Both the position numbers and the translations under genes were made by a program. Shown piece after piece: positions 6,073-24,443 of a stretch of DNA of 64,000 nt. The DNA comes from an uncultured bacterium (lineage in GTDB: Bacteria > Bacillota_I > Bacilli_A > RFN20 > CAG-826). The stretch's first letter is position 1, and each line of letters starts with the position of its first letter. The DNA is taken from NCBI GenBank assembly GCA_949295325.1, contig CASFKG010000002.1, positions 76,047-140,046 of the forward strand. Direction: 5' to 3'. The notes beneath the pieces are model-generated. The model worked only from the letters and a program-made list of their open reading frames with translations, made no database searches and was not told the origin of the DNA.

Positions 6073-6297
6073 TGCTTCCGTTAAATTAGATTATGAACAC
6101 TTGTCTATTTTTCCTTCGATTGCGCCTAGAAATTTCTAGTTTATAGACACTATTACATGTTTTGTCTATTTTCTTATAACATTAGCCATTTACATTTTTC
6201 TTGGCGAAACTATATTCATCTCGCCCCCGGACCTAGCCCCCTCTTCGTCCGGGGCTTTTTGTTTTCTAGCAACCCGAAGCGCTTTATAATGCGCTTA

Positions 6298-6894: not shown

Positions 6895-6895
6895 G

Positions 6896-8837: not shown

Positions 8838-8868
8838 GCGAGCAAATGCCTGGCCTATTCGCCGCGTC

Positions 8869-8883
8869 TTGATATAATCAAGG
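8869..8883 (+). promoter_or_regulatory. palindromic operator over an extended -10 (CTTGAT-ATA-ATCAAG; TGaTATAAT) upstream of rubrerythrin
   Basis: Perfect 6-3-6 inverted repeat containing TATAAT (8874-8879) with an upstream TG. The RBS AAGGAG lies at 8887-8892. Confidence 0.45.
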
Positions 8884-8902
8884 GCAAGGAGAACCAAAAA
8901 AC

Positions 8903-9442
8903 ATGGATTTGAAAGGATCTAAAACCGAACAGAACCTCATGACCGCTTTCGCCGGCGAGTCGCAGGCCCACACCAAGTACGAGTACTATGCCTCCAAGGC
9001 CAAGAAGGAAGGCTACGAGCAGATAGCCGCCATCTTCATGGAGACTTCCCTTAACGAAAAGGAACACGCCAAGCTCTGGTTCAAGTACCTCCATGACGGC
9101 GACGTTCCCACCACCGAAGCCAACCTCAAGGACGCCGCCAGCGGAGAGAACTACGAATGGACCGACATGTATGCCGGCTTCGCCGAAACCGCCCGCAAGG
9201 AAGGCTTTGAGGAAATCGCCCTTAAGTTCGAGATGGTCGGGGCCATCGAAAAGGCCCACGAGGAGCGCTACCTGAAGCTTCTCGAGAAGGTCAAGGGCGG
9301 CAAGGTCTTCATTTCCGAGGACGTTACCGTCTGGAAGTGCCGCAACTGCGGACATCTCGTAATCGGCAAGTACGCCCCCGAGATTTGCCCGGTCTGCAAG
9401 CATCCGAAGAGCTTCTTCGAGCTTCGCGCCACCAACTATTAA
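8903..9442 (+). CDS. rbr: rubrerythrin
   Basis: Diiron four-helix N-domain ([22 protein letters not shown]…EKEHAKLW) plus a C-terminal rubredoxin-like CxxC…CxxC (CRNCGH…CPVCKH). Confidence 0.9.
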
Positions 9443-9460
9443 TCGATAGCAAAGGAGAAG

Positions 9461-9488
9461 GGCGGGGAGAAATCCCCGCCTTGTTCAT
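9461..9488 (+). terminator. rho-independent terminator after rubrerythrin
   Basis: GGCGGGGA-GAAA-TCCCCGCC hairpin followed by TTGTTCAT. Confidence 0.6.
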
Positions 9489-9492
9489 AGAC

Positions 9493-9753
9493 ATGGAAAA
9501 AATAGAAATCAACGTCGAAGGGATGATGTGCTCCAATTGCGAAAAGCACGTTGCCGAAGCGCTAAGCAAGGTGCCCGGCGTCAAATCCGCTTCCGCCGAC
9601 CGCGAGAAGAAAGCCGCTTTCGTCGAAGCCGAGGACGGGGTCGGAGACGACCTCCTCAAGGCCGCGGTGGAGGAAGCCGGGTACAAGCCCGGGGATGTCG
9701 CTAGGGCCAAAGAGAAGAGCCGTTGCTTTTTCTCGCGGCTATTCAAACGATAA
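9493..9753 (+). CDS. heavy-metal-associated (HMA) domain metallochaperone, CopZ-like
   Basis: MEKIEINVEGMMCSNCEKHV carries the GMxCxxC metal-binding motif in a ~86-aa ferredoxin-like fold. The ORF as called (9337) begins inside rubrerythrin, so the start was moved to ATG 9493. Confidence 0.6.
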   Translation: MEKIEINVEGMMCSNCEKHVAEALSKVPGVKSASADREKKAAFVEAEDGVGDDLLKAAVEEAGYKPGDVARAKEKSRCFFSRLFKR

Positions 9754-9799
9754 TCGCTCTTGATTTATCTCGGTTAGACCTTGATAATATCGAGGCGCT

Positions 9800-9876
9800 G
9801 GACCATTGGTGTAGCGGCCTAACATGCTTCCCTGTCACGGAAGAGACCACGGGTTCGAATCCCGTATGGTCCGCCA
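9800..9876 (+). tRNA. tRNA-Asp (GTC)
   Basis: GGACCAT acceptor, anticodon loop CTGTCAC, T-arm GGGTTCGAATCCC, 3' GCCA. Confidence 0.85.
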
Positions 9877-9882
9877 GCGTTT

Positions 9883-9958
9883 GGCCCGATAGCTCAGTCG
9901 GTAGAGCAAGGGACTGAAAATCCCTGTGTCGGCGGTTCGATTCCACCTTGGGCCACCA
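9883..9958 (+). tRNA. tRNA-Phe (GAA)
   Basis: GGCCCGATAGCTCAGTCGGTAGAGC…, anticodon loop CTGAAAA, 3' ACCA. Confidence 0.85.
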
Positions 9959-10007
9959 TTCCGTCAGTCTCGACCTTCGAAAGGGTCGTTGCAAGTTATA
10001 GCGAAAG

Positions 10008-10036
10008 GTCCGGATTTGCCGGGCTTTTTGTTTTTT
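10008..10036 (+). terminator. rho-independent terminator after the tRNA-Asp/Phe pair
   Basis: GTCCGG-ATTTG-CCGGGC hairpin followed by TTTTTGTTTTTT. Confidence 0.55.
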
Positions 10037-10191
10037 CCAGCCGCGGCCGGGATCTCGGACAAACACCGGGCGAATGGCGTTGGGCATCTTTTCCTTTCGA
10101 GAAACGAAATGTAAGCATTTTTAAGCCGGCGAAAATAATCGTTGCCTATATTGCCAATGCCGATATCCTTTCATCATCAAAGGAGAAACAC

Positions 10192-12615
10192 ATGGAAAGC
10201 AACAAACTATTATTGGCTTTGGCGGCTTCGGCCCTGGTTCTGGCTTCCTGCGCAGGGAATGCCTCTTCCTCTTCGGCCACCCCGCCGCCCGGGCCGTCGA
10301 CTTCATCGACCGGTAGCGATCCCGAACCGGCCACGGCCATCGACGATGCCTTCATCGCCGCTTTATCTGCCAATTCGATTGTCGGAGAAGGAACTTTGGC
10401 CAACTACGGTAGCGAAACGAACGTCGAACTGTTCATAGGAACCGAATCCTACGAGTTCTTCGACTATGACGATTTCGGATACTATTACCAAGCCCAAGTG
10501 CTGCACAAAAACGCGGACGGGACCGTCCAGAGCTACTACCGCGACATAACGAACGAAATCTTCGATTCCCAACTCCTGCTGGAAGGGAGCAAAACGGCGG
10601 TCCTTTGGGATAACAATTTCTACAATCCCTTCGGAAAGATCGCCGCTTCCGACTTGACGGAGGACGGGGCGGGGGGATACGACCTCGCCGCCGACAAGGT
10701 CAATGCCTTCTGCATACCGCTTATGTTCTATTCGGTCGGAACCTACGATTCCGTAAGCCTCTCGCGGCTGGGCGATAGTCTTGCGATTTCCATAGCGGCG
10801 ACCGACGCGCGGGGAGATGACATGGACATGTCTATCGAGGTCAGGCAAGGCGAAGAAGCCGACCGTGCGGTTCCCGTCCCCTACGAAACGGAAGAGTGCC
10901 ACGAGGGCATCGATGCCGCCTTGTACGATTGGACCATGGCTTTGGCCGGTCCGAGCGACACGACCGGCTTCGTCTACGAAAAGACCATGACCCCGCTCGA
11001 TGACGACAGCATGAGCGTCGCTAGTAGCAAATCGACGGTAACCTACAATGCGGTTCTTTTCGCAAACGACGGCGGGATCACCAGCGAAAACGACTGGGGT
11101 TATGCGCTTTATAGCGACGGGAAGTACTACGAGTTCGAGGTAGTAGACGGCACGGCGGTCCGGGGAGAACCCTACGAGGGCTCATCTTATTATCCGATTC
11201 CGTCTCCGAACATCATCGCCGCCGAGATGTTCGTTCCGACGAAAGATCAGGATACCTACCTCTATCGTGATCCGGCCACTGCCACCGAGGCCCTCATCTT
11301 CCTGCTGGAGGATGCCAATGTAATCGGCCTTGTTTCCTATCTGGGCGCCAAGGACCTCACGATCCACATCGGCCCGGACGGCTACGTCGACAATTTCTCG
11401 TATACGTCCGGCATGTACAACTACGGCGGTGGCCTTTACCACGAACGCGTAAGCGTCGACATCGCCGAATTCGATACGGCCACCATCGATTACGATTTCA
11501 CCATCGAGGAAATCGCTCCGATTCCCGACATGTACGGCACGTGGACCGGTACCGACTATTGGGAGGGGACCGAGTATACTTTGGAAATTTCGGAGGACAG
11601 CGTCATATTGAACGGCAACGCCGCCGAACTCGTCTTGACGGAAACCAACCAGTGGGGTTACTACATCGGGACCCTGACATCCGGTCAAGATACTTTTGCT
11701 TTCGAGTACTATCCGGCGAGTTCCGGTTATCCGAAGCAAATCCTCCTCGAAAACGATACCTGCAGCGTTTACCTCGAAATAGCGGACAACGAGCCAATCG
11801 CCATGCCAGATGAGCTAATCGGTTCCTGGCACGGGGAAGAGGAGGGAAGCGGCTTCGCCTTCGACGTCGTCATCCTCAGTGGATCCGATATCAGCATCAA
11901 CGGCGTCTCCGCCGAAGTCGGCGAATGGGGCGAGACCTCCGACGGACTCGGCTACAAAGCCGAATTGACCGTCGAAGGCACCGTCTACGTTTTGACCTAC
12001 CGTCCGGCGGCCGGCACTTTCCGCCTCACGGACGAAACCGGGGCCTTGGTCGTCGATCTCGTGAGGACCGGGGAAGCCGAACCCGCCATCGATCCGAAGT
12101 TCGTAGGAACCTGGCAGGGGATCGACGATGCCGGCGGCGCAAGCCATACGCTGGTGATAAACGCCGATGCCACCGCCACCTATGACGGCGTTGCTTTCGA
12201 CGAACCGTTGGAATTCGTTAAGACCGTGTTTTCCGAAAAGGCCACCGCTACCCTCGGCGACAAGGAGTACGAAATCGAATACCTTTCGGGACTTGAGGGC
12301 GATTACATAAAAGTTACCGACGAGGATTACGTCGAAGCCACCCTCTACAAATCCTTTCCGTCCTTCGACTTCCCGGACGAATACGTCGGGACGTGGTCCG
12401 ACGGTACCCATGAGTTGGTGATGGGCGGGGACGGGACGATCGTATTCGACGGAACGCCCGCGACTTCCTTCGTTTCAACTGGCTTCGAAGGCGAATACGT
12501 TGCGGTCATCGGCGGAGAAACCTACGACATAAGCTACGTTGACTATTCCGGCCAGCAGCCCTTCTTCAGCGTACTGACTCCCGACGGAAACCCCCTCATT
12601 CTCAGGAAAGCCTGA
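10192..12615 (+). CDS. acidic lipoprotein with four C-terminal tandem ~95-aa repeats (unknown family)
   Basis: Signal peptide plus lipobox (MESNKLLLALAASALVLASCAGN), followed by a Ser/Pro-rich linker. The C-terminal half has four repeats. Each opens with [YLFY][GIVV]G[TS]W and the first three have an I[LS]?[IV]NG[NV][AS]AE motif, the fourth being more diverged (YGTWTG…, IGSWHG…, VGTWQG…, VGTWSD…). An RBS (AAAGGAG) precedes the ATG. Confidence 0.7.
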   Translation: MESNKLLLALAASALVLASCAGNASSSSATPPPGPSTSSTGSDPEPATAIDDAFIAALSANSIVGEGTLANYGSETNVELFIGTESYEFFDYDDFGYYYQAQVLHKNADGTVQSYYRDITNEIFDSQLLLEGSKTAVLWDNNFYNPFGKIAASDLTEDGAGGYDLAADKVNAFCIPLMFYSVGTYDSVSLSRLGDSLAISIAATDARGDDMDMSIEVRQGEEADRAVPVPYETEECHEGIDAALYDWTMALAGPSDTTGFVYEKTMTPLDDDSMSVASSKSTVTYNAVLFANDGGITSENDWGYALYSDGKYYEFEVVDGTAVRGEPYEGSSYYPIPSPNIIAAEMFVPTKDQDTYLYRDPATATEALIFLLEDANVIGLVSYLGAKDLTIHIGPDGYVDNFSYTSGMYNYGGGLYHERVSVDIAEFDTATIDYDFTIEEIAPIPDMYGTWTGTDYWEGTEYTLEISEDSVILNGNAAELVLTETNQWGYYIGTLTSGQDTFAFEYYPASSGYPKQILLENDTCSVYLEIADNEPIAMPDELIGSWHGEEEGSGFAFDVVILSGSDISINGVSAEVGEWGETSDGLGYKAELTVEGTVYVLTYRPAAGTFRLTDETGALVVDLVRTGEAEPAIDPKFVGTWQGIDDAGGASHTLVINADATATYDGVAFDEPLEFVKTVFSEKATATLGDKEYEIEYLSGLEGDYIKVTDEDYVEATLYKSFPSFDFPDEYVGTWSDGTHELVMGGDGTIVFDGTPATSFVSTGFEGEYVAVIGGETYDISYVDYSGQQPFFSVLTPDGNPLILRKA

Positions 12616-12644
12616 TAAGCCAAACGGTCAAAAGCCCTCCTTTC

Positions 12645-12666
12645 GCCCAAGAGGATGGGCTTTTTT
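12645..12666 (+). terminator. rho-independent terminator after the lipoprotein gene
   Basis: GCCCA-AGAGGA-TGGGC hairpin followed by TTTTTT. Confidence 0.65.
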
Positions 12667-13149
12667 CCTTGCGGGCAACCTGCCGGAAGCGGGAACGGCG
12701 AACGGCTCGAAAAAGGGATACGGGCGGCTTTTCTATTGGCCCTTGGCTTCGGGATATCCCTTTATCTCCCTTCGATGGCCTTTCCTGACCTATACGCCTA
12801 TATATTCAACGCGGACGAAGAAGTCCTTGGACTCGTTAGAACATACGCCCCGTTGTTCCTCGTGGGGACGATAATGTTCCCGATCCAAATGACGTTGCAG
12901 AACCTGAACGTCGCCTTTGGCCAGGCCAAAAGCGCGATTGTCCTTGCGGTCATGAGAAAGGTCGGCATACTCATTCCACTATGCTTCGTCCTTTCGCATT
13001 TCCTTTCCTATCCAGGGGTCTACATGTCGGAAGGCATAGCCGATTTGGTTGCCGGGACCATCACCGGCATCGTGATATTCTCGACCTTTCCGCGGATCAT
13101 AAGAAGAAGGTCGGAATCGGCAAAGAAATACGTCGGAAACGACTCCTGA
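12655..13149 (+). pseudogene. remnant of a MATE-family efflux transporter (C-terminal ~3 TM helices only)
   Basis: The translation (…TYAPLFLVGTIMFPIQMTLQNLNVAFGQAKSAIVLAVMRKVGILIPLCFVLSHFL…GIADLVAGTITGIVIF) matches the conserved C-terminus of MATE/NorM/DinF transporters. The N-terminal ~300 aa are absent. The only in-frame ATG (12655) lies inside the preceding terminator hairpin and has no RBS. Confidence 0.4.
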
Positions 13150-13218
13150 GGGCTCCGGCGCTCCTTGAGTCTAAGAGATTTATACATAGTAAAGACACTG
13201 GATATTTTTTGCCGAAAA

Positions 13219-13245
13219 GAAAACGCCCCGCCGGGGCGTTGCTTC
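13219..13245 (-). terminator. rho-independent terminator downstream of the minus-strand tRNA-Asp/Gly pair
   Basis: Minus-strand reading: ACGCCCC-GGC-GGGGCGT hairpin followed by TTCTTTTCGGCAAAAAA. Confidence 0.5.
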
Positions 13246-13249
13246 CTAT

Positions 13250-13323
13250 TGGAGCAGGTGACGAGAATCGAACTCGCATAGTCAGCTTGGAAGGCTGATG
13301 TTCTACCACTGAACTACACCTGC
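13250..13323 (-). tRNA. tRNA-Gly (TCC)
   Basis: Reverse complement is GCAGGTGTAGTTCAGTGGTAGAAC…, anticodon loop CTTCCAA, 3' TCCA. Confidence 0.85.
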
Positions 13324-13324
13324 G

Positions 13325-13401
13325 TGGCGGACCATACGGGATTCGAACCCGTGGTCTCTTCCGTGACAGGGAAGCATGTTAGGCCGCTACACCAATGGTC
13401 C
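13325..13401 (-). tRNA. tRNA-Asp (GTC), second copy
   Basis: Its reverse complement is 77/77 identical to the plus-strand tRNA-Asp at 9800..9876. Confidence 0.85.
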
Positions 13402-13442
13402 ATTCGCGTAGCCCGGCTAATATAGCACGGACCCGCGGGCGA

Positions 13443-13748
13443 TTAAAGGTTTAGTAGAGACAAAACGCTCTCTTTCGGCATATAGCCCATGCGGACAGCC
13501 AACGTTTTGCCGTTTTCGAAGGCAATGAGGGTCGGGATGGCGCTCACGCGGTAGACGGAAGCGAGTTCCGGGACTTCGTCGACGTTGACCTTTAGAACGT
13601 TGATTTCGGGATGTTCCTTGGCGATCTCTTCGACGATGGGGGACAGCATCTTGCAGGGCCCGCACCAGTCGGCATAGAAGTCGACTAGGACCTTGCCCGA
13701 TTGGATTTCGACATCGAATTCCGACTTGCTAGCAATGTGTTTCAGCAT
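13443..13748 (-). CDS. trxA: thioredoxin
   Basis: 101 aa with the WCGPC active site (VDFYADWCGPCKMLSP) and a typical Trx fold length. Confidence 0.85.
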   Translation of the reverse strand: MLKHIASKSEFDVEIQSGKVLVDFYADWCGPCKMLSPIVEEIAKEHPEINVLKVNVDEVPELASVYRVSAIPTLIAFENGKTLAVRMGYMPKESVLSLLNL

Positions 13749-13775: not shown

Positions 13776-14714
13776 CTACGCCGCGCCCACGCAAAGGGCC
13801 ACGATAAGGAATATCAGCCCAAGGTGTATCGGGTAATAGGCATAGCAACCGTACTTGAACCATTTGCCATTGTAACCAAGTCTTCCGCTATAGCAAGCAA
13901 CTAGCACCGCGGAAAGGCAGGAATAGCTTTGCAGCCCCATGCTCCAGATGTCGTAGGGCCCCGAGGCGAATAGTTCGGTGGCGCCGATGGAACATAATCC
14001 CCAGAAAACGAGATTGACGACGATGATCGATCCGGCACAGAAAAGATCTAGCAGAAAGCGGTAGTCTTCCGTCTTCCTATACTCGTCCATCATTTCCTCG
14101 CCTCTGATGGCCGAGACCGACGAGACGAGCATTTCCAGAAGTTTCGGGGAGTAGTAGAAAAGCATGAACAGGGCAAAGCCGTAGATGTTATAGCCTCCGA
14201 AGAAAAGCCGGAAAGGCGCATAGGCGATATCCACGCCCGACATGAACCTTATGAAATACGACGCCCCGACATAGGCCAAAGGCAAAAGCGCCAACGTCCG
14301 GATTTTCCGGTTTTTGCTTTCCAACAGGTAAATAAACAAGGCGTAGGGCAGCAAATCGGAAAAAGCCTGGCTACCGACATTTGTGGAAAAGCCGAACTGG
14401 ATGACGCAGGAGACGGCCAAAACCGCAATCCATACTGCCGAGAGCCTCAGTAAATACCTTTCCCTGGAATGGGTATGGCGGAGGCCTTCTGCCAAAAGGA
14501 ATACGAATAGCGGGAAGGAGAGCCGACCTATCATCCTCAGGACAAGTATCAGGTTATCGAGCCAGCCACCGGAAACGATTAGTATCCCGGCGCTAGGAAG
14601 AACGTTCTCCAAGGCCAATCCGACATGGTCGACCGTCATGGTAATCAGGGCGACGACCTTTAGCCAAAACGAATCGATGACCAGGTGTTTTTTCTTATTT
14701 AGCGTTTCTTCCAT
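13776..14714 (-). CDS. TraX-family polytopic membrane protein
   Basis: N-terminal motif FWLKVVALITMTVDHVGLAL is characteristic of TraX family proteins. It has 8-9 predicted TM helices. Confidence 0.55.
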   Translation of the reverse strand: MEETLNKKKHLVIDSFWLKVVALITMTVDHVGLALENVLPSAGILIVSGGWLDNLILVLRMIGRLSFPLFVFLLAEGLRHTHSRERYLLRLSAVWIAVLAVSCVIQFGFSTNVGSQAFSDLLPYALFIYLLESKNRKIRTLALLPLAYVGASYFIRFMSGVDIAYAPFRLFFGGYNIYGFALFMLFYYSPKLLEMLVSSVSAIRGEEMMDEYRKTEDYRFLLDLFCAGSIIVVNLVFWGLCSIGATELFASGPYDIWSMGLQSYSCLSAVLVACYSGRLGYNGKWFKYGCYAYYPIHLGLIFLIVALCVGAA

Positions 14715-15529
14715 CAGACGGCTCCTGCGGCGATAAGTATAACCGAGAGGAGGTTATTGAGGGCATGGGTCGTTAGGGAGGCACCCAATCCCTGCTTGTC
14801 GTAAACATAGCAGAGTATGAGGCCCGGCACGATGTAGGAAGGCAGGTTCAGCCATTCGTTAAGGGAACCGATATTCGTGAAGTCGAAATGGATGAAGCCG
14901 AATATCGCCCCGGCAACTATGTATGCGATCCAGTCGTTAGCACGTTTAAGCACCCCGAAAAGTCCGACCCTGTAGATGAGTTCTTCGGCGAATGGCCCCA
15001 AAAGCCCAAGGAAGACGATGGCCAGGGCCGGAGATGCCAGTACGATCTGATTGACAAGAGTCTGGTTCTGGTTGTCGGTGACGTTGGCCCCTGCAAGGCT
15101 AAGTACCAGTCCATAGAGGAAATTAAACACATAGATCACAATGAAGCCGACGAGGCCCAAAACAGGTCCTTTCCAGGAAAATTTGCGCAATATCCCCTTC
15201 CATTTGTCGAAAACGATAAGGCACAGTAGGACTAGGACCGTCCCATAACTCACATACTGTGCAATCGAAAGGTTCACGGGGTCCGTTACGGCGCTTTGTC
15301 CGCCGGCAGAAAGCTGAATCAATTGGACCGCCGTTGCTACGAGGGAAAGCAAAAGATAGCCACCTAGCGCAAGCGCGATTTCCCTCGCGGCCCCGACCGG
15401 ATAAAAACCGGAGAATCCCCTGGTGGATGCCGGATCGTCGTTTTCCTTTCCGCACTTCGGGCAATCCTTCAGCGCAGCATCGTAAGTCGACCCGCATTCC
15501 TGGCATTTACGGTAGGTGACAATCCGCAT
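14714..15529 (-). CDS. CPBP-family intramembrane metalloprotease (CAAX protease/Abi-like) with an N-terminal zinc ribbon
   Basis: CPBP motifs: EExxxR (FAEELIYRVGLFG), FxxxH (FGFIHF) and HALNNLL. The N-terminus has CQECGS…CPKCGK (2×CxxC). Confidence 0.7.
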   Translation of the reverse strand: MRIVTYRKCQECGSTYDAALKDCPKCGKENDDPASTRGFSGFYPVGAAREIALALGGYLLLSLVATAVQLIQLSAGGQSAVTDPVNLSIAQYVSYGTVLVLLCLIVFDKWKGILRKFSWKGPVLGLVGFIVIYVFNFLYGLVLSLAGANVTDNQNQTLVNQIVLASPALAIVFLGLLGPFAEELIYRVGLFGVLKRANDWIAYIVAGAIFGFIHFDFTNIGSLNEWLNLPSYIVPGLILCYVYDKQGLGASLTTHALNNLLSVILIAAGAV

Positions 15530-15531
15530 GT

Positions 15532-15551
15532 GGCAAATGTTATCATTTGCC
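15532..15551. promoter_or_regulatory. 20-bp perfect palindrome (GGCAAATG-TTAT-CATTTGCC) in a divergent promoter region
   Basis: Sits 3 nt from the CPBP start codon (minus strand). It is 27 nt upstream of the extended -10 (TGcGATAAT, 15575-15583) of the giant gene. Confidence 0.45.
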
Positions 15552-15590
15552 TAGTGCTTGTGCATATTTCTTTGTGCGATAATTGCAGAC

Positions 15591-18500
15591 ATGGGATCCC
15601 TATTCAGAATTTTGGCCGACGCCGTCGACGTCGGTTCGATAGTCGATATTTTGACGACTTCGCTCAACGTTGCCTTCTGGGCGATAGTCGCCCTGCTCAT
15701 ACTAGCCTTCCTTTGGGGCCTTCTCCACGGCTGGCGTTACGGGGTCTACCGCCTCGTTTCCTTTGCCATTTGGATCGCCGTCTTCCTGATTTGCCTTGAA
15801 CCGCTTGCCGATTTCGTCGGCAACTTCGATCTATCCGGTTTCGGCTTGCCGGCTATAAACCTGGCCATTAACGGTGCGACGGTTTCGGTTTCCTGGACAA
15901 CGCCTTTCGCGACCATCGGAACGCTGGTTAGCGAGGCCATGAAGGCCCTAGGGACAAACCTCGATCCTTCCGAGCTTGCTTCCTACGCCATTTCGCTGGC
16001 CACAAACAGCGTCAAACTCGTTCTTCTTTTGGTCTACGGGCTGCTGTTGCTAACCCTCGTAAATTTCGTCATCTGGCTTTTCTGGCACATCCTTTTCAAG
16101 TGGCTCACCCCGAAGAGAATCCGTAGAAACCGGAAGAAGATGAACAAAGGACGCATAGTGAACGGCCTTGTCCAGACCGCCTTCGTCTTCGTCGCTGGCG
16201 CCTTGGTTATCTACCCGCTGACTTCCGTTGTGAATACCATCAACCAAGCCGTGGTCCGCCCCGACGAAGAAACGATGGAACAGATAAGGGCGGATAACGG
16301 AACCTACGCGACGGTTGTCGACGTCCTAGATGCCTACGACTCTTCGATTTTTGCCCAGGTTTTCTTCAACTGGAGCGAATCGGAAGGCATGACGTTCGAC
16401 GCGAAGCTCATCGATCTTCTGATAAACAGCAATTATGGCGACATGTCGGTGTCGCTTCTTCAGGAACTGGGATCAATCGCTTCCATTGCCGCGACGGCGC
16501 TTTCTACCGGCGTCGACTTAAGCGGCAGCCAAGGCGAAATCCTTTCGACATTGATTACCGCCAATCAAACCCCGGAAATACTTAGGCTTTTGGCCGACAA
16601 CCAACTGGTGAGCATCGCCCTTCCCTTCGCCTTTCAGATTGCGGTTAACATCGACGAGGTTTCCTCTTATCTCTTGACCGACGAGGGAATCGCCGCCGAC
16701 AGCGAGGATTTCTCCAATGCCCTCGATTCCTTGGCGGATCTATACCAAGGCGTCCTCGATTCGGGGACCCTCGAAGGCCTATACATCGACGATAACGGCC
16801 AAATGAGCTTCGACCTGGATTACGTCTTCAATCTTTTTAACGAGGAAACGAAGGCCGACTTCGATGCTTTCTTCGACTCGATTGACGACGGCAAGCTTGC
16901 CCTTTTCGAGAACATACTCGACAGTTTCGCCTACGTCCAGGCGGTAGCTGCCGATAAGCAGTTCGGAGAAGATCCCAACGTCCTTACCATCGCCGACTTT
17001 TTGCCGGAAGCCACCTTCGTCGACACGAACAACGACGGTCGTCCGGACGCGGTGAGCCAGGATTTCAAGGACATCGAGTGGGGAAGCGAATTACGCTACG
17101 TCTACGACTTCGTCTACGAAGCCAATTCGATCGATCCAGATTTCGCCCCGGCCCTGTTGTCCGGCCTCATGGCCTCCGGCGGGACGGGCGAGGTGAACAT
17201 GCAGCCGGTCATCGACTTTGCCGTCGACAACATCACCGACATATCCGACCTCTTCGTCGGCGATCTCGGCGACATCGATTCCGAAACCGGGCATTCGAAG
17301 ACGGAAGGGGAGACCTGCCTCCTCGACTCGTCACTCATCAACAACGCGATGCCGAAAATGCTTTCTTTGCTTGGAACCGGCATAAATTCCGGTCTATTCG
17401 AGGACGAGGAAGTCGTCGACATGCAGCCCATCACCGACGAACTGGAGGGCGCGACGGTCGCGGAGAGCATGATCAACTACAAACGCGAGCTCTCCTCTCT
17501 TCTCTCCGTCATGGAGGAGTTCCTCGTCGGCCATCCCTCCGCGTCCGCGCTTTTGAAGGATTTCGAGGAACATCCGGGCGTCTACATCGATCCCGACAAC
17601 GTCTTCCAAGGCATGGAAGGCGATATCTATGACGGGGCAATCGACGCCCTAAGGGTTATGGATTCCTCTTTGATAGCGAGCAATATCCTGCCGGCGGTCT
17701 TCTCAAAATTCCTCGACGGGGACGGCAATTTCGTCAATAACCTGCTCGGGCCCGAAGCCTTGCCGCTTGATTTCGGCGTCGAAAACCTCGGTGGGGAACT
17801 GGCCGACCTATTGGCCGCGGTTAAGGAACTGGACCCCTATATCCCGGTTCTTACCGGACTTGGTAGTTCCAGTTTCTCCTCCTCCCAGATCAAGGACCTC
17901 CTTTCCGTCGAAATCGGCGAGGGGAGCGATGCCAAACCCCTTCTTGGATACCTGCTCGATTTATTTGCCAACAGCAAGATCCTCAATCCGGTCGACGAAG
18001 TCGACGGAGTGACCGTGATAAACACCAACTACTACTGTCTCATGAAGACCGTGGCCGATGCTGCCTTCGGGGAGGGCAGTTTCCGGCTTTCCATCGGCGA
18101 TTTCCAGGATGCTTCCTTCGCGGAAAGCGAAAACGACGCATTCTTGAGGGTCCTTGGCGAAATCGTCGATACCGGGCTGCTCGATAACCTCGGCGATGTC
18201 GCTTCGGGCGAGATTACCCGGGTCCTTCGGGTCCTCAACGCCATTCCGGAAGAGGATTTCGTCTCCCTGTTCGGATCGCTTGGCGATTCCTTGGTCCTGA
18301 AGAGCTGCATAAGCGACTTCCTCGACGAGAACCTCACCGCCGCGTTGTTCGGGACCGATAGCGGCATATCCTTCGGAAACGTGACCGATTGGGTCGAGGA
18401 AGGACGGTCGCTCAAGGCCCTTATACGCTTTGCAAGCGAAGTAGGGGATCTTTCCAATATCGACTTCTTCAATAGCGACCCCTATGCCGTGGAGGGGATT

Positions 18501-21500
18501 ATACGGGTCTGTGCGACCAGCCAGTTGTTCATAAAAGACGGCGATTATCTGTTCCCCGGTTTCCTCGCGGATACTTTGGGAAAGTCCCTCGAGGGCACTT
18601 CGGTCACCCTGATAGAGGGTTCGTATTTCGATTATGGGACGCAGTCGTTTGCCGTCATCGAAGGCAACGAATACGGCTTACTTAAGGCCAACGTCCTTTC
18701 CCTCGACAATCCGGACGATTGGGTCGCCGAGTCCGCCGTCTTGGGCGACGTTCTCGAATCGGCCCAGAAACTAGGTGGACTCGAGAACCTCTCGATCTAC
18801 GAAATGGACCCAGACCTATTCGAAGAACTCATGTCCTCGGCCTCCTACTCGGAGGTTCTGGGAAATCTTCTTGTCCCCAACGTCTTTGCCATGGTGGAAG
18901 ACGATTTGGCCGCTGCGCTGGTGCAATACGGCGGAATCAGCGTCGAAAACGCCAACATCGCCTATGTCTATGACGGAACGCCCCAGGAAAGGGCGGCCGA
19001 AACCGTCCTCCTTTCCGATCTGCTGGCCGCCGTAACCGATCCGACGTACGGCCTGATGGACGAAGGCCAGGTGGCGAGTTCGGTTTCGCTCGCTAGCCTT
19101 TCGGGACGCCATACCCTTAAACCGATCCTCGACGCCTTGGCGGACAGCCGGGTCTTCAATTCATCCTACGTCGAAGGCACCGACACGGCCTTCGAATCGC
19201 TTTTGGCCAGCACGCTTTACGGAACCGGGCTCTACGGCGATGCCGTGACCGGCCAGGAGGTCCTCGAAAGGGTCCGGGAAGTGACGGACTGGAACTTCGA
19301 GAACGCCTCCATCGCCGATGCCCTGGATTCCATGAAGGAGATTCTCGGCGGCGGGACCGACTTGGGGAGCCTCGACTTCGCCTCTTATTTCAGCGGTACC
19401 GCGGCCGAGGTGGAAGCAAGGAAGAGCGATTTGGCCGCCCTGCTCGACAACATGGACCAAAGCCTCTTGCTCTCGCTCGCCATGAGAAGCCAGCTCGCCG
19501 GCATGGCCTCTTCCTTCGAGGTTCCGCTTGTCGAAGGCGGCTTGGCCACCGCCAACTTCGCCTACGAAAACGGGGAAGGCCGCTACGGGCACGAGGAAAT
19601 AATGAATTTCGTGGACGCATTGTCCATATTGGCCGGTCTAGGCGACGATCCGCTTTCCGGCGACATGAGATCCTATGTCGACGTAGCCAAGCTTTTGGCC
19701 CAGAGCCATATTTTCAACACGGTTAAGGACGGGCAGGAAAGGACCTTCTTCCAAAGCACGATGTACGCGATTATCGGTAACGAGGCCATATCTGCCTATC
19801 TTTGCCCGGTGGACGACGCGGGCCGCCCGACCAGTCCGAAGGCCGAGGGGTTCGCCACTTCCGGCGATTATATCGCCAACTTCATCTACAGCGTCAATTT
19901 CCCAAGCAGCGCCGATGGCGTCGCCACCCCCGACAACCAGGTCGAATTGGACAGGCAGCAGGGGCTGATAGATTCCTTGGGGGACGTCCTGCCTTCGATT
20001 TCCGCCTTCTTCGGGGCCGGCGATTTCTCTCCCTCTAGCATCGATACCGAGACCCTCTACGGGTTGCTTGACGCCATCAACGGCAGCGATTTGCTTTTCG
20101 AAATGGTGCCGAACATCCTCTCGTCCTATTTGACCGGCGACAACCTCGACATCGAAATCGAAGGCATAGACATCGCGTTGGCCAATCCCTATTTCTCCTA
20201 TTATTACGACGAATCCAGCGGGGTCCTCGATTTCGATAGCCCCGACTGGAGCCGCCATTATCCGGCCAGCGAAATCGAGAACATCGTGGACCTCATCTCT
20301 TATCTGCGCGATTTCCGGAACGTCCTTGGCACTATCGATTTCTCCTCGGTTTCGCCCATCGCTTTCCACGACGTGCTCATGCTTGCCCACGACTCCTACG
20401 TGTTCAACCTGGCCGGTCCGAACCAGCAGAACCTGAGCCATGCCCGCAACGCGATCGACCAACTGCCGAACAACCTGACCGTGTTCGAACAGCTGATGCT
20501 AAAGGTCTACGATGCCACCGCGATAGGATATTTCTCCTTCGACGTCCAGGAGGATGCCGTATTCCTGCTCTCCTTAAAGGACAATAACGGCAATCCGTTC
20601 CTGGGAAGCTATTCGGATCTTCTGTCCTTTGCCGCCCGGGAAGACGCCAAGGAGGTAGGTTCGAGGGCCAAACTCTATGCGAGGATAATCGAAGGGCGCG
20701 ACGGCGGCTTCGACTATGAGCGCGAAATCGCCGCCCTTACCATCGGAAGCCCGACCGAAGTCGGTTTCTTCGAAGCCATCCAGAACAGCGACCTGCTCGG
20801 CAGCGACAGCGACCTTTCCAACGTTTCCACGAGCTTCGAGAACCTTTCGCCCGACGATCTCGGCCTCTTGCTGCGGAGCCTCAACGAACTCGAACTGGTC
20901 GACCTTCCGGCCGCCTATCTGGCCGATTCGATGGTCAACGGCTTGCCGGACGAAAACTCCTCGTCGAGTTTCTCCGGGATGGGAATGCAAAGCTATTCCA
21001 GCTATTCCGTAAAAAGCGGTAGCAGCCTCTTCGGCGAAGGCCGCATCCTCTCTCTCGACATAAGCGAGGTCGACGAGACCCTCCTTGACGGCCTTACTTT
21101 CACATTGCACGGCAAGGACCGGGAAGGTACGGCGGCGAACGTTTCCGACTTACCCCATAGCGGCGGGCACTACGATTTCGGGGACCTGCTCCCTTACGGC
21201 CTAGAGGTCAGCGGCCTTCCGGAGGACTCGAATGCCGCGTTTACCTACACGGTCGACAGCTCGGACTACTTCTTCAGGGAAGAAAAGACCATTGCGGCGG
21301 CCGCGCAGCGTTACCGCGAAGGCGGCATAGAGACGATGGTCGAGATGCTCGACGCGCTCTATATCGACGGCGACGGCGACGGGACCGAGGACAGCTATTT
21401 CGCCTTCGACGCCTCCAGCCGGGAAGGCATCACCCAGGCCCTCGACATCGGCACCGCCACCATCTTGGAGTTCCTCGGATCCAAAGGCGGTTTCTACGTG

Positions 21501-22535
21501 ACCCCGTCCGGCGATTATACCGGCGGCGCCATTACCCTATATAACCTGCTTATCGTCTCCAGCGACCTGAGCGGCCTCGCCGATCTGCTACCCGGCATCG
21601 AGATCCCGGCATCCGCGAATGTCCCGCTAGGGGAAGCGGTAGTGTACGGCGGCATCCCCATGGGAGAAGACGGCCTTCCCGTCGAGGGAGCCGAGGGAAC
21701 CGCGACCGACGATCCGCTCGCAGCCATCGGGAACATCCTAAGCCTTCTTGAGTACAATAGCGGCTTCGCTGATGGCAGCGGCCACCATCCTACCTATGCC
21801 CAGGAAGGGAAGTGGCTCGACGAAAACATCGCGGGAATCGTGGCCTTCGAAGGCCTCTATTACGGGTTCGAAGCCGCGGCCATCGCGGATGCTCCGTCAT
21901 ACCTCTATTTGATGAACCTCCTGGATCAGGCGGATTCGCCTTACGGGGATTTCTATTCCTCCCTTTTCGGATCCGATTCCAATCTTGTTGCCGACAAACC
22001 GCTGTTCGGGGCGAACATGATCGCCAACTTGGCCGGCGAGATGACCGCGGGCTTCCGCGGCTATGCCCGCGAGGCCAGCGGCCTGCCTTTGTCCACATCC
22101 CGTCCCTACATCATCCAAAAGGTCGGCGCGGATCCGGCCGCCTTGGCGAGTTTGCCGGACAATCTCGCATTCGCCCTTGAAGACGGAGATTTCTTCAAAG
22201 GGGCGGACGTTGCCTTGCTCTGCCAGTCTGACGGCGGCCTCGCGGACCTGCTGAAGGTGATGGGGTCGTTGGTAAGCGGCGATCCGGTCGAGTCCATCAT
22301 AGACGGGTTCGCCGAACTGCAGCCCGATAGCCCGGATGCCTGGGGATTCGCCTACGAGGCCGCGGTGTCGCTTCTTGTCGGACCGCTGTTCGACGAAATG
22401 GCGCTTTCGGGATATCTCGATTCCAGTAGCCAAGCCAACATTCCCGACTTCATGGATTTCGATTCCAGGTTCCTTACCATCGGGGAAAACGGCCCGGAAA
22501 ACGTCTTCGCCTATCTTTCTGCCAATGTCCGCTAA
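15591..22535 (+). CDS. giant (~2314 aa) highly acidic membrane-anchored protein of unknown function
   Basis: Single uninterrupted ORF 15558..22535. The likely start is ATG 15591, 7 nt after the -10 (leaderless). The N-terminal ~230 aa contain 4-5 hydrophobic helices and a KRIRRNRKKMNKGR loop. The remaining >2000 aa are D/E/S/G/L-rich with isolated DxDxDG-like motifs (DTNNDGRPDAV; YIDGDGDGTEDSYF). No enzymatic or known adhesin domain was recognised. Confidence 0.7.
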   Translation: MGSLFRILADAVDVGSIVDILTTSLNVAFWAIVALLILAFLWGLLHGWRYGVYRLVSFAIWIAVFLICLEPLADFVGNFDLSGFGLPAINLAINGATVSVSWTTPFATIGTLVSEAMKALGTNLDPSELASYAISLATNSVKLVLLLVYGLLLLTLVNFVIWLFWHILFKWLTPKRIRRNRKKMNKGRIVNGLVQTAFVFVAGALVIYPLTSVVNTINQAVVRPDEETMEQIRADNGTYATVVDVLDAYDSSIFAQVFFNWSESEGMTFDAKLIDLLINSNYGDMSVSLLQELGSIASIAATALSTGVDLSGSQGEILSTLITANQTPEILRLLADNQLVSIALPFAFQIAVNIDEVSSYLLTDEGIAADSEDFSNALDSLADLYQGVLDSGTLEGLYIDDNGQMSFDLDYVFNLFNEETKADFDAFFDSIDDGKLALFENILDSFAYVQAVAADKQFGEDPNVLTIADFLPEATFVDTNNDGRPDAVSQDFKDIEWGSELRYVYDFVYEANSIDPDFAPALLSGLMASGGTGEVNMQPVIDFAVDNITDISDLFVGDLGDIDSETGHSKTEGETCLLDSSLINNAMPKMLSLLGTGINSGLFEDEEVVDMQPITDELEGATVAESMINYKRELSSLLSVMEEFLVGHPSASALLKDFEEHPGVYIDPDNVFQGMEGDIYDGAIDALRVMDSSLIASNILPAVFSKFLDGDGNFVNNLLGPEALPLDFGVENLGGELADLLAAVKELDPYIPVLTGLGSSSFSSSQIKDLLSVEIGEGSDAKPLLGYLLDLFANSKILNPVDEVDGVTVINTNYYCLMKTVADAAFGEGSFRLSIGDFQDASFAESENDAFLRVLGEIVDTGLLDNLGDVASGEITRVLRVLNAIPEEDFVSLFGSLGDSLVLKSCISDFLDENLTAALFGTDSGISFGNVTDWVEEGRSLKALIRFASEVGDLSNIDFFNSDPYAVEGIIRVCATSQLFIKDGDYLFPGFLADTLGKSLEGTSVTLIEGSYFDYGTQSFAVIEGNEYGLLKANVLSLDNPDDWVAESAVLGDVLESAQKLGGLENLSIYEMDPDLFEELMSSASYSEVLGNLLVPNVFAMVEDDLAAALVQYGGISVENANIAYVYDGTPQERAAETVLLSDLLAAVTDPTYGLMDEGQVASSVSLASLSGRHTLKPILDALADSRVFNSSYVEGTDTAFESLLASTLYGTGLYGDAVTGQEVLERVREVTDWNFENASIADALDSMKEILGGGTDLGSLDFASYFSGTAAEVEARKSDLAALLDNMDQSLLLSLAMRSQLAGMASSFEVPLVEGGLATANFAYENGEGRYGHEEIMNFVDALSILAGLGDDPLSGDMRSYVDVAKLLAQSHIFNTVKDGQERTFFQSTMYAIIGNEAISAYLCPVDDAGRPTSPKAEGFATSGDYIANFIYSVNFPSSADGVATPDNQVELDRQQGLIDSLGDVLPSISAFFGAGDFSPSSIDTETLYGLLDAINGSDLLFEMVPNILSSYLTGDNLDIEIEGIDIALANPYFSYYYDESSGVLDFDSPDWSRHYPASEIENIVDLISYLRDFRNVLGTIDFSSVSPIAFHDVLMLAHDSYVFNLAGPNQQNLSHARNAIDQLPNNLTVFEQLMLKVYDATAIGYFSFDVQEDAVFLLSLKDNNGNPFLGSYSDLLSFAAREDAKEVGSRAKLYARIIEGRDGGFDYEREIAALTIGSPTEVGFFEAIQNSDLLGSDSDLSNVSTSFENLSPDDLGLLLRSLNELELVDLPAAYLADSMVNGLPDENSSSSFSGMGMQSYSSYSVKSGSSLFGEGRILSLDISEVDETLLDGLTFTLHGKDREGTAANVSDLPHSGGHYDFGDLLPYGLEVSGLPEDSNAAFTYTVDSSDYFFREEKTIAAAAQRYREGGIETMVEMLDALYIDGDGDGTEDSYFAFDASSREGITQALDIGTATILEFLGSKGGFYVTPSGDYTGGAITLYNLLIVSSDLSGLADLLPGIEIPASANVPLGEAVVYGGIPMGEDGLPVEGAEGTATDDPLAAIGNILSLLEYNSGFADGSGHHPTYAQEGKWLDENIAGIVAFEGLYYGFEAAAIADAPSYLYLMNLLDQADSPYGDFYSSLFGSDSNLVADKPLFGANMIANLAGEMTAGFRGYAREASGLPLSTSRPYIIQKVGADPAALASLPDNLAFALEDGDFFKGADVALLCQSDGGLADLLKVMGSLVSGDPVESIIDGFAELQPDSPDAWGFAYEAAVSLLVGPLFDEMALSGYLDSSSQANIPDFMDFDSRFLTIGENGPENVFAYLSANVR

Positions 22536-23121
22536 GTTCGGAATCGTCGCCGAAAGCCGTTATGAATGCAAGGTGCTTTCGTCGACTTTCCGGTTCGCCT
22601 TGATTCCGCTTCGCGGCCGTTCCCCCGAAGAAACGGCCGAGGAATTCAAGAACGAGGAAAAGGGCGCCAGCCACTATCCATATGCCTACGTGGAAGGAAG
22701 CCGGGAGCGCTGCAGCGACGACGGGGAACCCCACGCGGCCGCGGGTCTTCCGTTCCTCAATTTGCTTAGGAGCAGGGAACTCGACGGCGTCTTGCTCATC
22801 TGCGCCCGCCATTTCGGCGGGACCAAGCTCGGCCTAGGACGGCTCAAGCACGTCTTTTCGGACGGCGCCAAGCAAGTAATCGCCTTAGCCAAGGTAGGGG
22901 AAATAGTCATAACCGATACCTACGAGGTCGAGGTTCCTTTCGAGAGGATGGCGGCCGCGGAAAACCTGCTAAAGCGTAATGGCGTCGCCCACCGGCGCGA
23001 AATCGGGGCCGAGATGGCCGTAGTAAGTTTCGACGGCAATGCTAATATATGCGCGGCTTTGGAAACCCTCGGCCTCAAGCCCTCTTTCCTTGGCAGCAGG
23101 AAGTCAGTAAAGGAGATTTGA
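22525..23121 (+). CDS. YigZ/IMPACT-family protein (UPF0029)
   Basis: ~198 aa with LICARHFGGTKLGLGRL, the YigZ/IMPACT signature. ATG 22525 overlaps the last 11 nt of the giant gene. The ORF as called (22336) has a nonsense N-terminal extension. Confidence 0.7.
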   Translation: MSAKFGIVAESRYECKVLSSTFRFALIPLRGRSPEETAEEFKNEEKGASHYPYAYVEGSRERCSDDGEPHAAAGLPFLNLLRSRELDGVLLICARHFGGTKLGLGRLKHVFSDGAKQVIALAKVGEIVITDTYEVEVPFERMAAAENLLKRNGVAHRREIGAEMAVVSFDGNANICAALETLGLKPSFLGSRKSVKEI

Positions 23122-23123: not shown

Positions 23124-24443
23124 ATGATGAACTACGATGAACGGGTCGACAGCTGCGAATACCAAAGGCGCCGGCGCGACTTGGCCAGGAAGATAAAGGA
23201 AGACAGTCTCATCGTCCTCTTCTCGGGAGTCGAAAAGAAAAAAAGCGCCGACGAGAACTATCCATTCGAAGTCAACAAGAATTTCTATTATCTGACTGGC
23301 ATCGACCAGTCCGATTCCGTCATCATCATCTCGGTGAATGGCGGCATCTACCGGGAATACCTTTTCGTTGCTCCTTACGACGAAAAGAAGGAGAAATGGA
23401 CCGGCAAGCTCCTCACTTTCGCCCAAGCCAGCGAAATAAGCGCCTGCCAAAACGTCCTGCCGACCGGCGCCTTCGGGGCCATGCTCGAAAGGGCATTGGG
23501 GGGAAATAGCGAGGAGCTCGAGGAGCCCAAGCACCTTTATTTCGATTTCGAGAAGGAAAACAAGATTGCCGAGGAAACCAGCGTAAGCGACTTCCGCGGA
23601 AAAATCGCCGGCATGTTTCCGGCCATTCCCCAGTTCGATGTCTATCCGTACGTCACCACGATGAGGCTCGTGAAGTCGAGCCAGGAAATGAAACTGTTCA
23701 AGCGGGCCGTAAGCGCGACCAAGGCAGCAATCGAAAAAACCGTCGCCGCCATCCGGCCGGGCGTCAGGGAATACGAGCTAGCCGATGCCTTCCTCCACGA
23801 GGTAAACGACCAAACCGGTTATCAAGGACTGAGCTTTGCGACGATAATGGCATCGGGGAAAAACGCGGCTATCCTGCATTATCCGACGCCGAAGGATACG
23901 TGTCTGGACGGCGATCTGATCCTCATGGACCTAGGGGGCCGCTTCGGGTATTACAACGCGGACGTTTCCCGTACCTTCCCGGTAAACGGCAAGTTCGACG
24001 ACCTGCAGCTCAAACTCTACGAGATGGTCCTTAACGCCAACAAACTTGTCATCTCGTTGGCCCGCCCGGGAGTGACCATCCGGGAACTTCAAAATGCCAC
24101 CAAGGCGCATCTGGCCAAAGGCATGGTCGATCTGGGGCTCATGGATTCCGAAGACGATCTCATCAAGTATTACTTCCACGGCGTGAGCCACCTAATCGGC
24201 CTCGATACCCACGATCCCTACGAATCCATAGAGGGGAGTGTTGATTACCACGACATCCCCCTGCAGCCGGGCATGATAATAAGCGACGAACCCGGCATAT
24301 ACATCGCCGAAAGGGGAATCGGAATCAGGATCGAGGACGATCTCTACATAACCGAGAGCGGCTGCGTTAACCTGACCAGCGAGATCCTGAAGGAGCCCAA
24401 GGACATCGAAGCCTTCTTTTCCAAACTACAGGGCACCCGTTAG
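23124..24443 (+). CDS. pepP: Xaa-Pro aminopeptidase (M24B family)
   Basis: N-terminal creatinase-like domain followed by a pita-bread domain (DLGGRFGYYNADVSRTF…HGVSHLIGLDTHD…EPGIY…IEDD). RBS AAGGAG is 7 nt upstream of ATG 23124. Confidence 0.8.
   Translation: MMNYDERVDSCEYQRRRRDLARKIKEDSLIVLFSGVEKKKSADENYPFEVNKNFYYLTGIDQSDSVIIISVNGGIYREYLFVAPYDEKKEKWTGKLLTFAQASEISACQNVLPTGAFGAMLERALGGNSEELEEPKHLYFDFEKENKIAEETSVSDFRGKIAGMFPAIPQFDVYPYVTTMRLVKSSQEMKLFKRAVSATKAAIEKTVAAIRPGVREYELADAFLHEVNDQTGYQGLSFATIMASGKNAAILHYPTPKDTCLDGDLILMDLGGRFGYYNADVSRTFPVNGKFDDLQLKLYEMVLNANKLVISLARPGVTIRELQNATKAHLAKGMVDLGLMDSEDDLIKYYFHGVSHLIGLDTHDPYESIEGSVDYHDIPLQPGMIISDEPGIYIAERGIGIRIEDDLYITESGCVNLTSEILKEPKDIEAFFSKLQGTR

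Follow-up and report, generated by a model that had tools for sequence, protein, structure and literature searches.

A giant membrane-anchored protein built from divergent helical modules in uncultured RFN20-type gut Bacilli

Ebh and Embp, the giant surface proteins of staphylococci, are composed of FIVAR, FIVAR-GA and DUF1542 helical-bundle repeats and are held by a single C-terminal transmembrane (TM) anchor. Here we describe a protein of 2314 amino acids (hereafter, the giant protein) encoded by a single open reading frame (ORF) in a 64,000-nt stretch of DNA (the window) from an uncultured bacterium of the RFN20 lineage, family CAG-826 (contig CASFKG010000002.1, positions 76,047 to 140,046, assembly GCA_949295325.1). 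Like Ebh and Embp, it is a giant, acidic Bacillota protein that is predicted to lie at the cell surface, to be anchored in the membrane rather than by sortase, and to form a long projection from tandem all-alpha modules, so that the staphylococcal proteins may be the best analogy for how it works. The differences are nevertheless substantial. Neither the giant protein (Pfam, E ≤ 1) nor four of its distant relatives match FIVAR, FIVAR-GA or DUF1542; its module is ~180 aa long as opposed to ~126 aa; its repeats are too divergent for self-BLAST; and it carries an N-terminal four-TM anchor instead of a single C-terminal TM helix, and no YSIRK signal peptide. The proposal that it forms an anionic surface fibre or coat, its length set by the number of modules and its tip variable, has in our estimation about an even chance of being correct.

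Other described systems show more limited likeness. S-layer and coat proteins share with the giant protein an acidic isoelectric point (pI), very few cysteines, abundant hydrophobic and hydroxy residues and, as predicted here, a position on the outer face, but it is far larger than is typical of them and Pfam detects in it no SLH, CWB2 or other anchoring or lattice domain. In the sorting systems based on CPBP proteases (MrtJ/JDVT-CTERM, MrtS/Synerg-CTERM and myxosortase), a CPBP protease is encoded beside a large surface protein, as may be the case here; however, the C-terminus of the giant protein (...ENVFAYLSANVR) has neither a TM helix nor a TM-plus-basic signal. Proteins of the RTX, cadherin and Ig-like (Big, SasG-type) kinds differ in that none of their families is matched in Pfam or NCBIfam, the structural models are all-alpha, and only two DxDxDG-like motifs are present. 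Finally, Giant1-5 of Apilactobacillus kunkeei are reported to be elongated surface proteins of 3000-8000 aa from a small Bacillota genome, with N-terminal beta-solenoid domains related to serine-rich repeat adhesins and encoded in a five-gene cluster (PMC12863079); the giant protein differs from them in being all-alpha as modelled, single-copy and N-terminally anchored.

The giant gene, its family and its helical modules

The ORF extends on the plus strand from an ATG at 15591 to a TAA at 22533-22535 (15591-22535; 2314 codons). The mechanical ORF call opens earlier, at a TTG at 15558, and position 15532, given as the start in a first-pass annotation made from the sequence by a model, is the first base of an upstream palindrome. 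The computed product has a mass of 248 kDa, a pI of 4.05 and seven cysteines. Exactly the same 2314-aa product is encoded on a 330-kb contig at ENA and in a separate Logan assembly, and relatives align collinearly with it over the full length; a frameshift or gene-fusion artefact can therefore be excluded, and the uninterrupted ORF noted at first pass is real and intact in independent assemblies. The GC content of the gene (0.57) and of its third codon positions (GC3, 0.735) matches that of the neighbouring genes; on this ground, and in view of conserved synteny, horizontal acquisition is rejected. In the representative of one related locus (L029), the gene is split into two consecutive ORFs, 6515-9799 (1095 aa) and 9896-13606 (1237 aa), which could reflect a frameshift, a pseudogene or a sequencing error.

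No homology to a characterised family reached significance, whether by sequence or by PDB fold. Pfam returned no family for the giant protein at E ≤ 1, NCBIfam gave no real match (its sole hit was a 12-bit chance match), and there was no match among PDB sequences or in PADLOC. The original impression that the protein contains no recognisable adhesin, RTX, Ig, cadherin or enzyme domain thus holds across the Pfam, NCBIfam and PDB sequence and fold searches. The four distant relatives are likewise devoid of Pfam domains, apart from one sub-threshold DUF637 match (P0146, 21.3 bits against a cutoff of 26.6).

The search for distant homologs that had been suggested at first pass did yield a family, but no characterised one. 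A word-indexed protein search retrieved seven clusters (2265-3033 aa, 27-47% identity), none of them named, and word-index searches with the full-length alignment or the N-terminal alignment returned almost nothing; the family becomes visible through exhaustive HMMER searching and a genome scan. Using residues 1-1200 as the query against 1.84 billion representative proteins, phmmer recovered 189 clusters when the threshold was E ≤ 1e-3, of which 106 also reached E ≤ 1e-30; almost all lie between 1200 and 3000 aa in length. The scan, which covered one genome per GTDB species, identified 31 species with the giant protein, all of them uncultured metagenome-assembled genomes labelled Bacilli, Bacillales, Firmicutes or Mollicutes, save a few with other automatic labels (for example, Lachnospiraceae or Roseburia hominis). 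The protein of the window displays the features by which the family is recognised, namely an N-terminal four-TM block with the motifs G-x3-G(W[RK]Y) and WH..FK, a juxtamembrane signature P..N...Y..S......F...D, at least three ~180-aa modules of the [DN]W..E / S.hFN type, and a genomic position between a divergent CPBP-TraX-trx cluster and YigZ-PepP. The open-access literature searched on surface, giant or adhesin proteins of RFN20 contains no description of this family. Collectively, these results strongly support the assignment of the giant protein to an unnamed family found so far only in uncultured RFN20-type gut Bacilli, relatives of the mycoplasmas.

The first-pass annotation saw no obvious internal repeats. 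This is true for self-BLAST, which detects none, but profile methods reveal divergent helical modules of ~180 aa. When 200-aa tiles cut from the alignment of 31 family sequences were compared with hhalign, the tile starting at residue 1221 matched that starting at 1421 with 98.8% probability (E 4e-17) and the tile at 1021 matched that at 1221 (E 3e-15), with weaker matches reaching back to tile 621. Comparison of the module at 1222-1419 with the profile of the whole ectodomain (the large domain C-terminal to the anchor) located copies at about 623-831, 845-996, 1042-1214, 1469-1651 and 1708-1799. Likewise, a hidden Markov model (HMM) seeded on a single module matched the two neighbouring modules in the very first iteration (E 4e-9 and 8e-14), so that the repeat signal is not an artefact of profile drift.

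Upon iteration, the HMM converged on five full modules, all on the plus strand: R1, residues 629-820 (17475-18050; hhalign against R4 E 9e-8, HMM E 2e-20); R2, residues 845-999 (18123-18587; hhalign E 5e-8, HMM E 1e-26); R3, residues 1043-1215 (18717-19235; hhalign E 2e-12, the weaker of the two first-iteration matches); R4, the seed, residues 1233-1400 (19287-19790); and R5, residues 1460-1645 (19968-20525; hhalign E 2e-15, the stronger first-iteration match). Partial modules occupy residues 292-375 (16464-16715; iterated HMM E 6e-4 to 1e-5) and residues 1725-1797 and 1863-1951 (together 20763-21443; HMM E 1e-6 and 1e-5, hhalign E 1.5e-5). A module typically begins with [DN]W..E, contains L(L/D)..h(N/D).S.hh...hP in its middle and carries AN, S.hFN and T.F[EQ] near its end. 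The repeat HMM was matched by the giant ORF and by no other of the window's six-frame ORFs, which number 329, and against PDB sequences the repeat profile gave chance matches only (THO/HPR1 at E about 2).

The number of modules follows the size of the protein. Across the 31 loci, full modules number 3-4 in members of ~1300 aa, 5-7 at ~2300 aa and 7-10 at ~2790 aa; in a broader set of 133 representatives, module number correlates with protein length (r = 0.71), the mean rising from 4.0 full modules at 1200-1700 aa to 8.4 at 2800-3100 aa. At the level of sequence, an ectodomain consisting of an array of divergent ~180-aa modules is strongly supported.

AlphaFold2 models of two overlapping 1200-aa tiles, based on alignments of 7-9 sequences (predicted template modelling score 0.46-0.49), are both all-alpha with short hairpins. 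Block means of the per-residue confidence (predicted local distance difference test, pLDDT) are mostly 75-90 over residues about 380-1100 and 1115-1770 (about 65-87 in R3 and 75-90 in R4) and fall below 50 in the TM region and in the last ~545 aa. Each module is predicted to comprise about 6-7 helices, together with a short hairpin, arranged in the manner of an alpha-solenoid. Foldseek found no PDB structure at E ≤ 1e-3 (best E 0.023 and 0.076), and its weak matches were nearly all to alpha-solenoids, namely CAND1, condensin HEAT subunits, SF3B1, importins/CRM1 and armadillo proteins. The HEAT/ARM proteins (CAND1, importin-beta, condensin HEAT subunits, SF3B1) are the only fold-level neighbours of both models and have an all-alpha repeat architecture in common with them, but no profile or fold match is significant, and the common ground extends only to architectural class. 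The family is best filed as a new ~180-aa module and a new four-TM anchor in a giant, repeat-built and presumably surface-located bacterial protein. Neither the module nor the anchor is represented in Pfam, NCBIfam or the PDB, and the two extend the repertoire of bacterial surface-protein architectures.

Membrane anchor, charge and topology

The N-terminal multi-TM anchor and polybasic loop recognised at first pass are borne out, with the number of helices, formerly put at four or five, now set at four by hydropathy and the family alignment. The anchor occupies residues 24-211 (15660-16223, plus strand; delimited by hydropathy, family alignment and charge), with helices at about 24-45, 55-75, 138-168 and 188-211 and a loop of ~62 aa at 76-137 that is placed outside. 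The cytoplasmic loop between TM3 and TM4, which follows the conserved LWHxxFK end of TM3 (residues 169-187; 16095-16151, plus strand), reads TPKRIRRNRKKMNKGR. Four short-form members of ~1300 aa with 3-4 modules (L018, L024, L031 and L032) carry an extra, highly basic insert of ~30 aa in this loop, as read from columns about 170-200 of the family alignment. In 30 family members, lysine plus arginine (K+R) account for 28% of residues in loop 1 (TM1-TM2) and 41% in loop 3 (TM3-TM4), compared with about 2-5.5% in the N-terminal tail, the TM2-TM3 loop and the large domain. Under the positive-inside rule, such a bias points to an N-out, four-TM, C-out topology in which the ~2100-aa ectodomain would lie outside the cell, in line with the surface location initially suggested. 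In none of 133 representatives does a hydrophobic segment occur past about residue 330 (in six, one lies at ~306-331), so that a C-terminal anchor is absent.

The giant protein consists of 12.8% L, 9.6% S, 9.4% A, 9.1% D, 8.8% G and 6.3% E, with 4.4% K+R. It was called hyper-acidic at first pass, and its pI is indeed low, the remainder of the protein being very acidic, but D+E amount to 15.4%, which is ordinary for the window; the low pI stems from depletion of K and R rather than from an excess of D and E. Tabulated window ORFs with Pfam-assigned soluble functions contain about 10-17% K+R, whereas the depletion is family-wide in the giant proteins (mean ectodomain K+R 6.8%). An 807-aa lipoprotein-like ORF at 10192-12615, the only other clearly exported product of the window, has the same composition (pI 4.05, K+R 3.8%). 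K/R depletion is thus most readily explained as a mark of the proteins that this host exports, not as a special cation-binding design, and the earlier idea of a cation sink finds no specific support. The calcium-loop-like motifs are two, DTNNDGRPD at 478 and DGDGDGTED at 1926 (0.35 expected from shuffled sequences); they are present, as had been noticed, but too few to argue for calcium binding. Charge affects translocation, and the depletion probably also eases export of so long a domain. Halophile-style acidity of the entire proteome was considered as well and is ruled out, given that other proteins of the window have ordinary pI and 10-17% K+R.

These data also bear on the opposite orientation, which would put the large domain in the cytoplasm as a membrane-tethered alpha-solenoid scaffold, akin to the cytoskeleton of mycoplasmas. 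Alpha-solenoids are typically intracellular, every weak fold match is to a eukaryotic cytoplasmic or nuclear protein, and the giant protein has no cleavable signal peptide. Nevertheless, we regard this orientation as very unlikely: the charge bias of the loops relative to the large domain (5.5% K+R) holds across the family, and the K/R depletion resembles that of the lipoprotein-like ORF, not that of the cytoplasmic proteins encoded in the window.

Conservation in the N-terminal part is concentrated around the membrane. Within the ~420 N-terminal residues compared in 132 representatives, positions conserved in at least 80% of sequences (G43, G47, F169, R178, P209, N215, Y249, S252, F259, D270 and P345) are located where the TM helices end and in the earliest helices of the ectodomain. 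Most of them belong to the juxtamembrane segment, residues 209-270 (PLTSxVN ... DAYDxSxFAxxFF ... TFD; 16215-16400, plus strand), in which P209, N215, Y249, S252, F259 and D270 are 89-98% conserved and invariant in a set of 29 sequences. Such clustering at the membrane, along with the conserved GWRYGTYR and LWHxxFK motifs at the cytoplasmic face, is what would be expected if the four-TM block and the juxtamembrane segment formed an active membrane module. Such a module could, for example, act as a channel, translocate a lipid or polymer, or dock the CPBP protease and TraX acyltransferase encoded next to it; the ectodomain would then serve that machine, for instance by being processed or acylated as its substrate or by providing a scaffold on which the envelope is assembled. 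We consider an active module of this kind improbable. Searches of Pfam, NCBIfam and PDB sequences reveal no homology to any transporter or enzyme family, and a four-helix block that lacks conserved charges within the membrane is a poor candidate for a channel.

Proposed role, distal tip and host envelope

In the proposed fibre or coat, the four N-terminal TM helices would anchor the protein, leaving the short acidic N-terminal tail and the C-terminal ~2100 aa outside the cell and the two K/R-rich loops in the cytoplasm. The anchor and the conserved juxtamembrane segment would form the base, the modules a spacer or stalk whose count in each species would determine how long the protein is, and the distal ~545 aa, which evolve fast, an exposed tip. 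A strongly anionic, K/R-poor extended fibre or coat would thus project from the membrane and, in a cell that lacks sortases and has little or no peptidoglycan, could shield and stabilise that membrane and mediate contacts with the gut environment.

Several points weigh against this proposal. The topology is derived solely from the positive-inside rule, and the TM region of the model has pLDDT <50. An elongated rather than compact shape is assumed, the models being built from 7-9 sequences. The absence of a wall is deduced from relatives and a single kinase gene. The parts most strongly conserved are the anchor and the juxtamembrane segment, which hints at an activity more specific than passive anchoring. 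Furthermore, alignments of strains exhibit neither cassettes nor changes in repeat number, unlike many antigenically variable adhesins.

The distal C-terminal ~545 aa (20898-22532, plus strand) are the least conserved part of the protein. Identity to relatives is 30-43% over much of residues 1-1000, with about 20% in places, and drops to 6-15% over the last 600 residues, where coverage is about 50%. Within three clusters at 90% identity, the proteins are collinear, the exceptions being a few small gaps and unequal lengths at the very N-terminus, and in two of the three, diversity is 2-4x higher toward the C-terminus. Between species, the giant protein is 27-30% identical, versus about 50-60% for trx, PepP and FGGY encoded in the same loci. 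On the best overall reading, the giant gene is single-copy, vertically inherited and fast-evolving.

A fast-evolving tip on a stalk would also suit a specific adhesin or ligand-binding fibre, in which the distal domain recognises host mucus, glycans or other microbes. The tip evolves fastest both between and within species, and the length of the stalk varies with the number of modules, a trait shared with fibre adhesins already known. Adhesins are also found among the giant surface proteins of other Bacillota: Embp is reportedly one, and Giant1-5 of A. kunkeei are another example (PMC12863079). We find this explanation rather unlikely, because neither the giant protein nor the four distant relatives have a recognisable binding domain, the tip is modelled with low confidence and defies classification, and a gene that is single-copy, syntenic and apparently universal in its lineage is more suggestive of a core part of the envelope than of an accessory adhesin.

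The large size and the variability of the C-terminus would also fit a polymorphic toxin or a contact-dependent effector, the toxin domain of which would be C-terminal and variable, and the sub-threshold DUF637 match of P0146 is in the same vein. This reading is disfavoured and, in our view, extremely unlikely: no toxin, pre-toxin, Rhs, LXG or filamentous-haemagglutinin domain was detected with Pfam or NCBIfam in the giant protein or its distant relatives, the strain alignments show no swapping of C-terminal cassettes, and the downstream gene is a conserved YigZ/IMPACT gene rather than a variable immunity gene. In contrast to CdiA, Rhs, LXG and MafB systems, no delivery domain, swappable toxin or immunity gene was found for the giant protein.

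The fibre or coat would acquire particular importance if, as was surmised at first pass, the host had no cell wall. One of the relatives (L010) is Candidatus Alloenteromonas pullistercoris, Alloenteromonas being the corrected name of Ca. Enteromonas Gilroy et al. 2021, a genus assigned to order RFN20, family CAG-826 (PMC8035907). CAG-826 and CAG-288 are predicted to be deficient in peptidoglycan, and RFN20 to be without sortases (PMC10868615); mraY occurs in 14% and murG in 5% of RFN20 genomes, a lineage in which TGA is a stop codon (PMC7301438). The window itself encodes, in an rlmN-PP2C-kinase-rpe operon, a PrkC/PknB-like Ser/Thr kinase (54215-55093, plus strand; 292 aa) that matches positions 2-277 of a 563-position PASTA-kinase model and has no TM or PASTA part, which fits a host with absent or reduced peptidoglycan. 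Plausibly, then, the host lineage is wall-less or wall-reduced. Separately, a GT4-family glycosyltransferase gene followed by an overlapping gene for a PlsC-like acyltransferase lies at 6896-8837 (plus strand) and is found in none of the 31 syntenic loci; the pair could participate in the synthesis of membrane glycolipids as used by wall-less Bacilli.

A bolder version of the coat proposal, to which we assign a low probability, would have the giant protein as the chief component of an exoskeleton or glycocalyx made of protein, replacing the lost wall in peptidoglycan-deficient RFN20, constructed from a novel extracellular alpha-solenoid module, installed or matured by CPBP and TraX and expressed from paired leaderless promoters. 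RFN20 and RF39-type Bacilli, widespread in the guts of humans and animals, are still uncultured; loss of peptidoglycan and sortases is predicted for several of their families (PMC10868615, PMC7301438), and the giant protein bears on how peptidoglycan-poor gut cells build and protect their surface. Conserved, syntenic, exposed at the surface by prediction and encoded in all 31 genome hits, it is a concrete candidate for the dominant surface structure and could be of use as a lineage marker or an antigen, or offer a handle for antibody- or cell-sorting-based enrichment.

Gene neighbourhood and the divergent intergenic region

Domain assignments confirm that the giant gene diverges from a trx-TraX-CPBP cluster, as had been noted. 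On the minus strand, the cluster comprises a CPBP/Rce1-like glutamic intramembrane protease (14714-15529; Pfam PF02517), a TraX-family membrane protein (13776-14714; Pfam PF05857), the start codon of which shares base 14714 with the CPBP ORF, and, as the last gene, a thioredoxin (13443-13748). Downstream of the giant gene, on the plus strand, the ATG of a YigZ/IMPACT-family gene (22525-23121) overlaps the end of the giant ORF by 11 nt, so that the two are probably co-transcribed; the next conserved gene encodes an Xaa-Pro aminopeptidase (M24, PepP; 23124-24443), followed by an FGGY kinase and then AddB/AddA. This context is maintained across the 31 loci: all have CPBP, 29 have TraX and 29 trx, 27 have YigZ and 27 PepP, 21 have FGGY, and AddB/AddA occur in 10-13. 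A relative with 23% identity retains trx-TraX-CPBP / giant / YigZ ... PepP although the outer genes differ, indicating that the inner block outlasts the wider synteny; TraX is kept in loci L034 and L035, and PepP in the first of these.

The persistence of CPBP and TraX in divergent orientation next to the giant gene, in 29-31 of the 31 loci and beyond, would agree with an active membrane module, given that some CPBP-family proteases sort or process surface proteins. However, the giant protein has no C-terminal sorting signal for a CTERM-type sortase, and conservation of gene order well beyond the block (FGGY, AddAB) makes adjacency weak evidence of a link; as gene order is generally conserved in these genomes, we put forward a functional connection of the giant protein with CPBP and TraX as a hypothesis. 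The CPBP protein scores far below every curated cutoff of the NCBIfam CPBP models (20-35 bits versus 75-435), and its sub-threshold matches, which include MrtJ, MrtS and MroQ, denote a family relationship. TraX is the sole conjugation-named family nearby and is chromosomal and syntenic in 29 of the 31 species. Unlike extended VirB6/TrbL proteins of type IV secretion systems, the giant protein has no Pfam match and its neighbours are housekeeping genes. PADLOC defence models matched none of the giant protein, CPBP, TraX and the lipoprotein-like ORF.

The intergenic region between the divergent CPBP and giant genes is 61 nt long (15530-15590) and contains a palindrome and two TGn-extended -10-like boxes. 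Both the palindrome and the TGcGATAAT box reported at first pass are present in the sequence. The former has an 8+4+8 structure (GGCAAATG-TTAT-CATTTGCC, 15532-15551); the latter (15575-15583) ends 7 nt before the giant ATG. The box on the minus strand, TGaTAACAT (plus-strand 15537-15545), falls within the palindrome and likewise stops 7 nt short of the CPBP ATG. Neither side of the region has a Shine-Dalgarno core, which 15 of the 28 gene starts examined in the window possess, and a simple -35/-10 scan found no full sigma-70 site upstream of the giant gene. A -10-like box 6-8 nt before the ATG also occurs in four relatives (L013, L014, L019 and L023). Two back-to-back leaderless transcripts are a plausible interpretation of this arrangement, and their promoters may share an operator.

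Elsewhere in the window, ORFs of 245-686 aa without a Pfam family at E ≤ 1e-5 are located at 187-2345, 3423-5483, 6157-6894, 43499-44722 and 51109-52437. A DUF5677 protein is encoded directly after AddA (31319-32446, plus strand) and is found with 49-70% identity in 15 of the 31 loci. Beyond the thioredoxin gene, two identical 77-nt tRNA-Asp(GTC) genes in inverted orientation, at 9800-9876 (plus strand) and 13325-13401 (minus strand), bracket a 3.3-kb segment that is absent in relatives. It contains the lipoprotein-like ORF on the plus strand, the product of which begins with MESNKLLLALAASALVLASC..., has no match in Pfam, NCBIfam or PADLOC and has no relative in the 31 syntenic loci, as well as a truncated MatE fragment (12655-13149) that matches only profile positions 56-161. 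The segment may have arisen by insertion or rearrangement between the tRNA copies.

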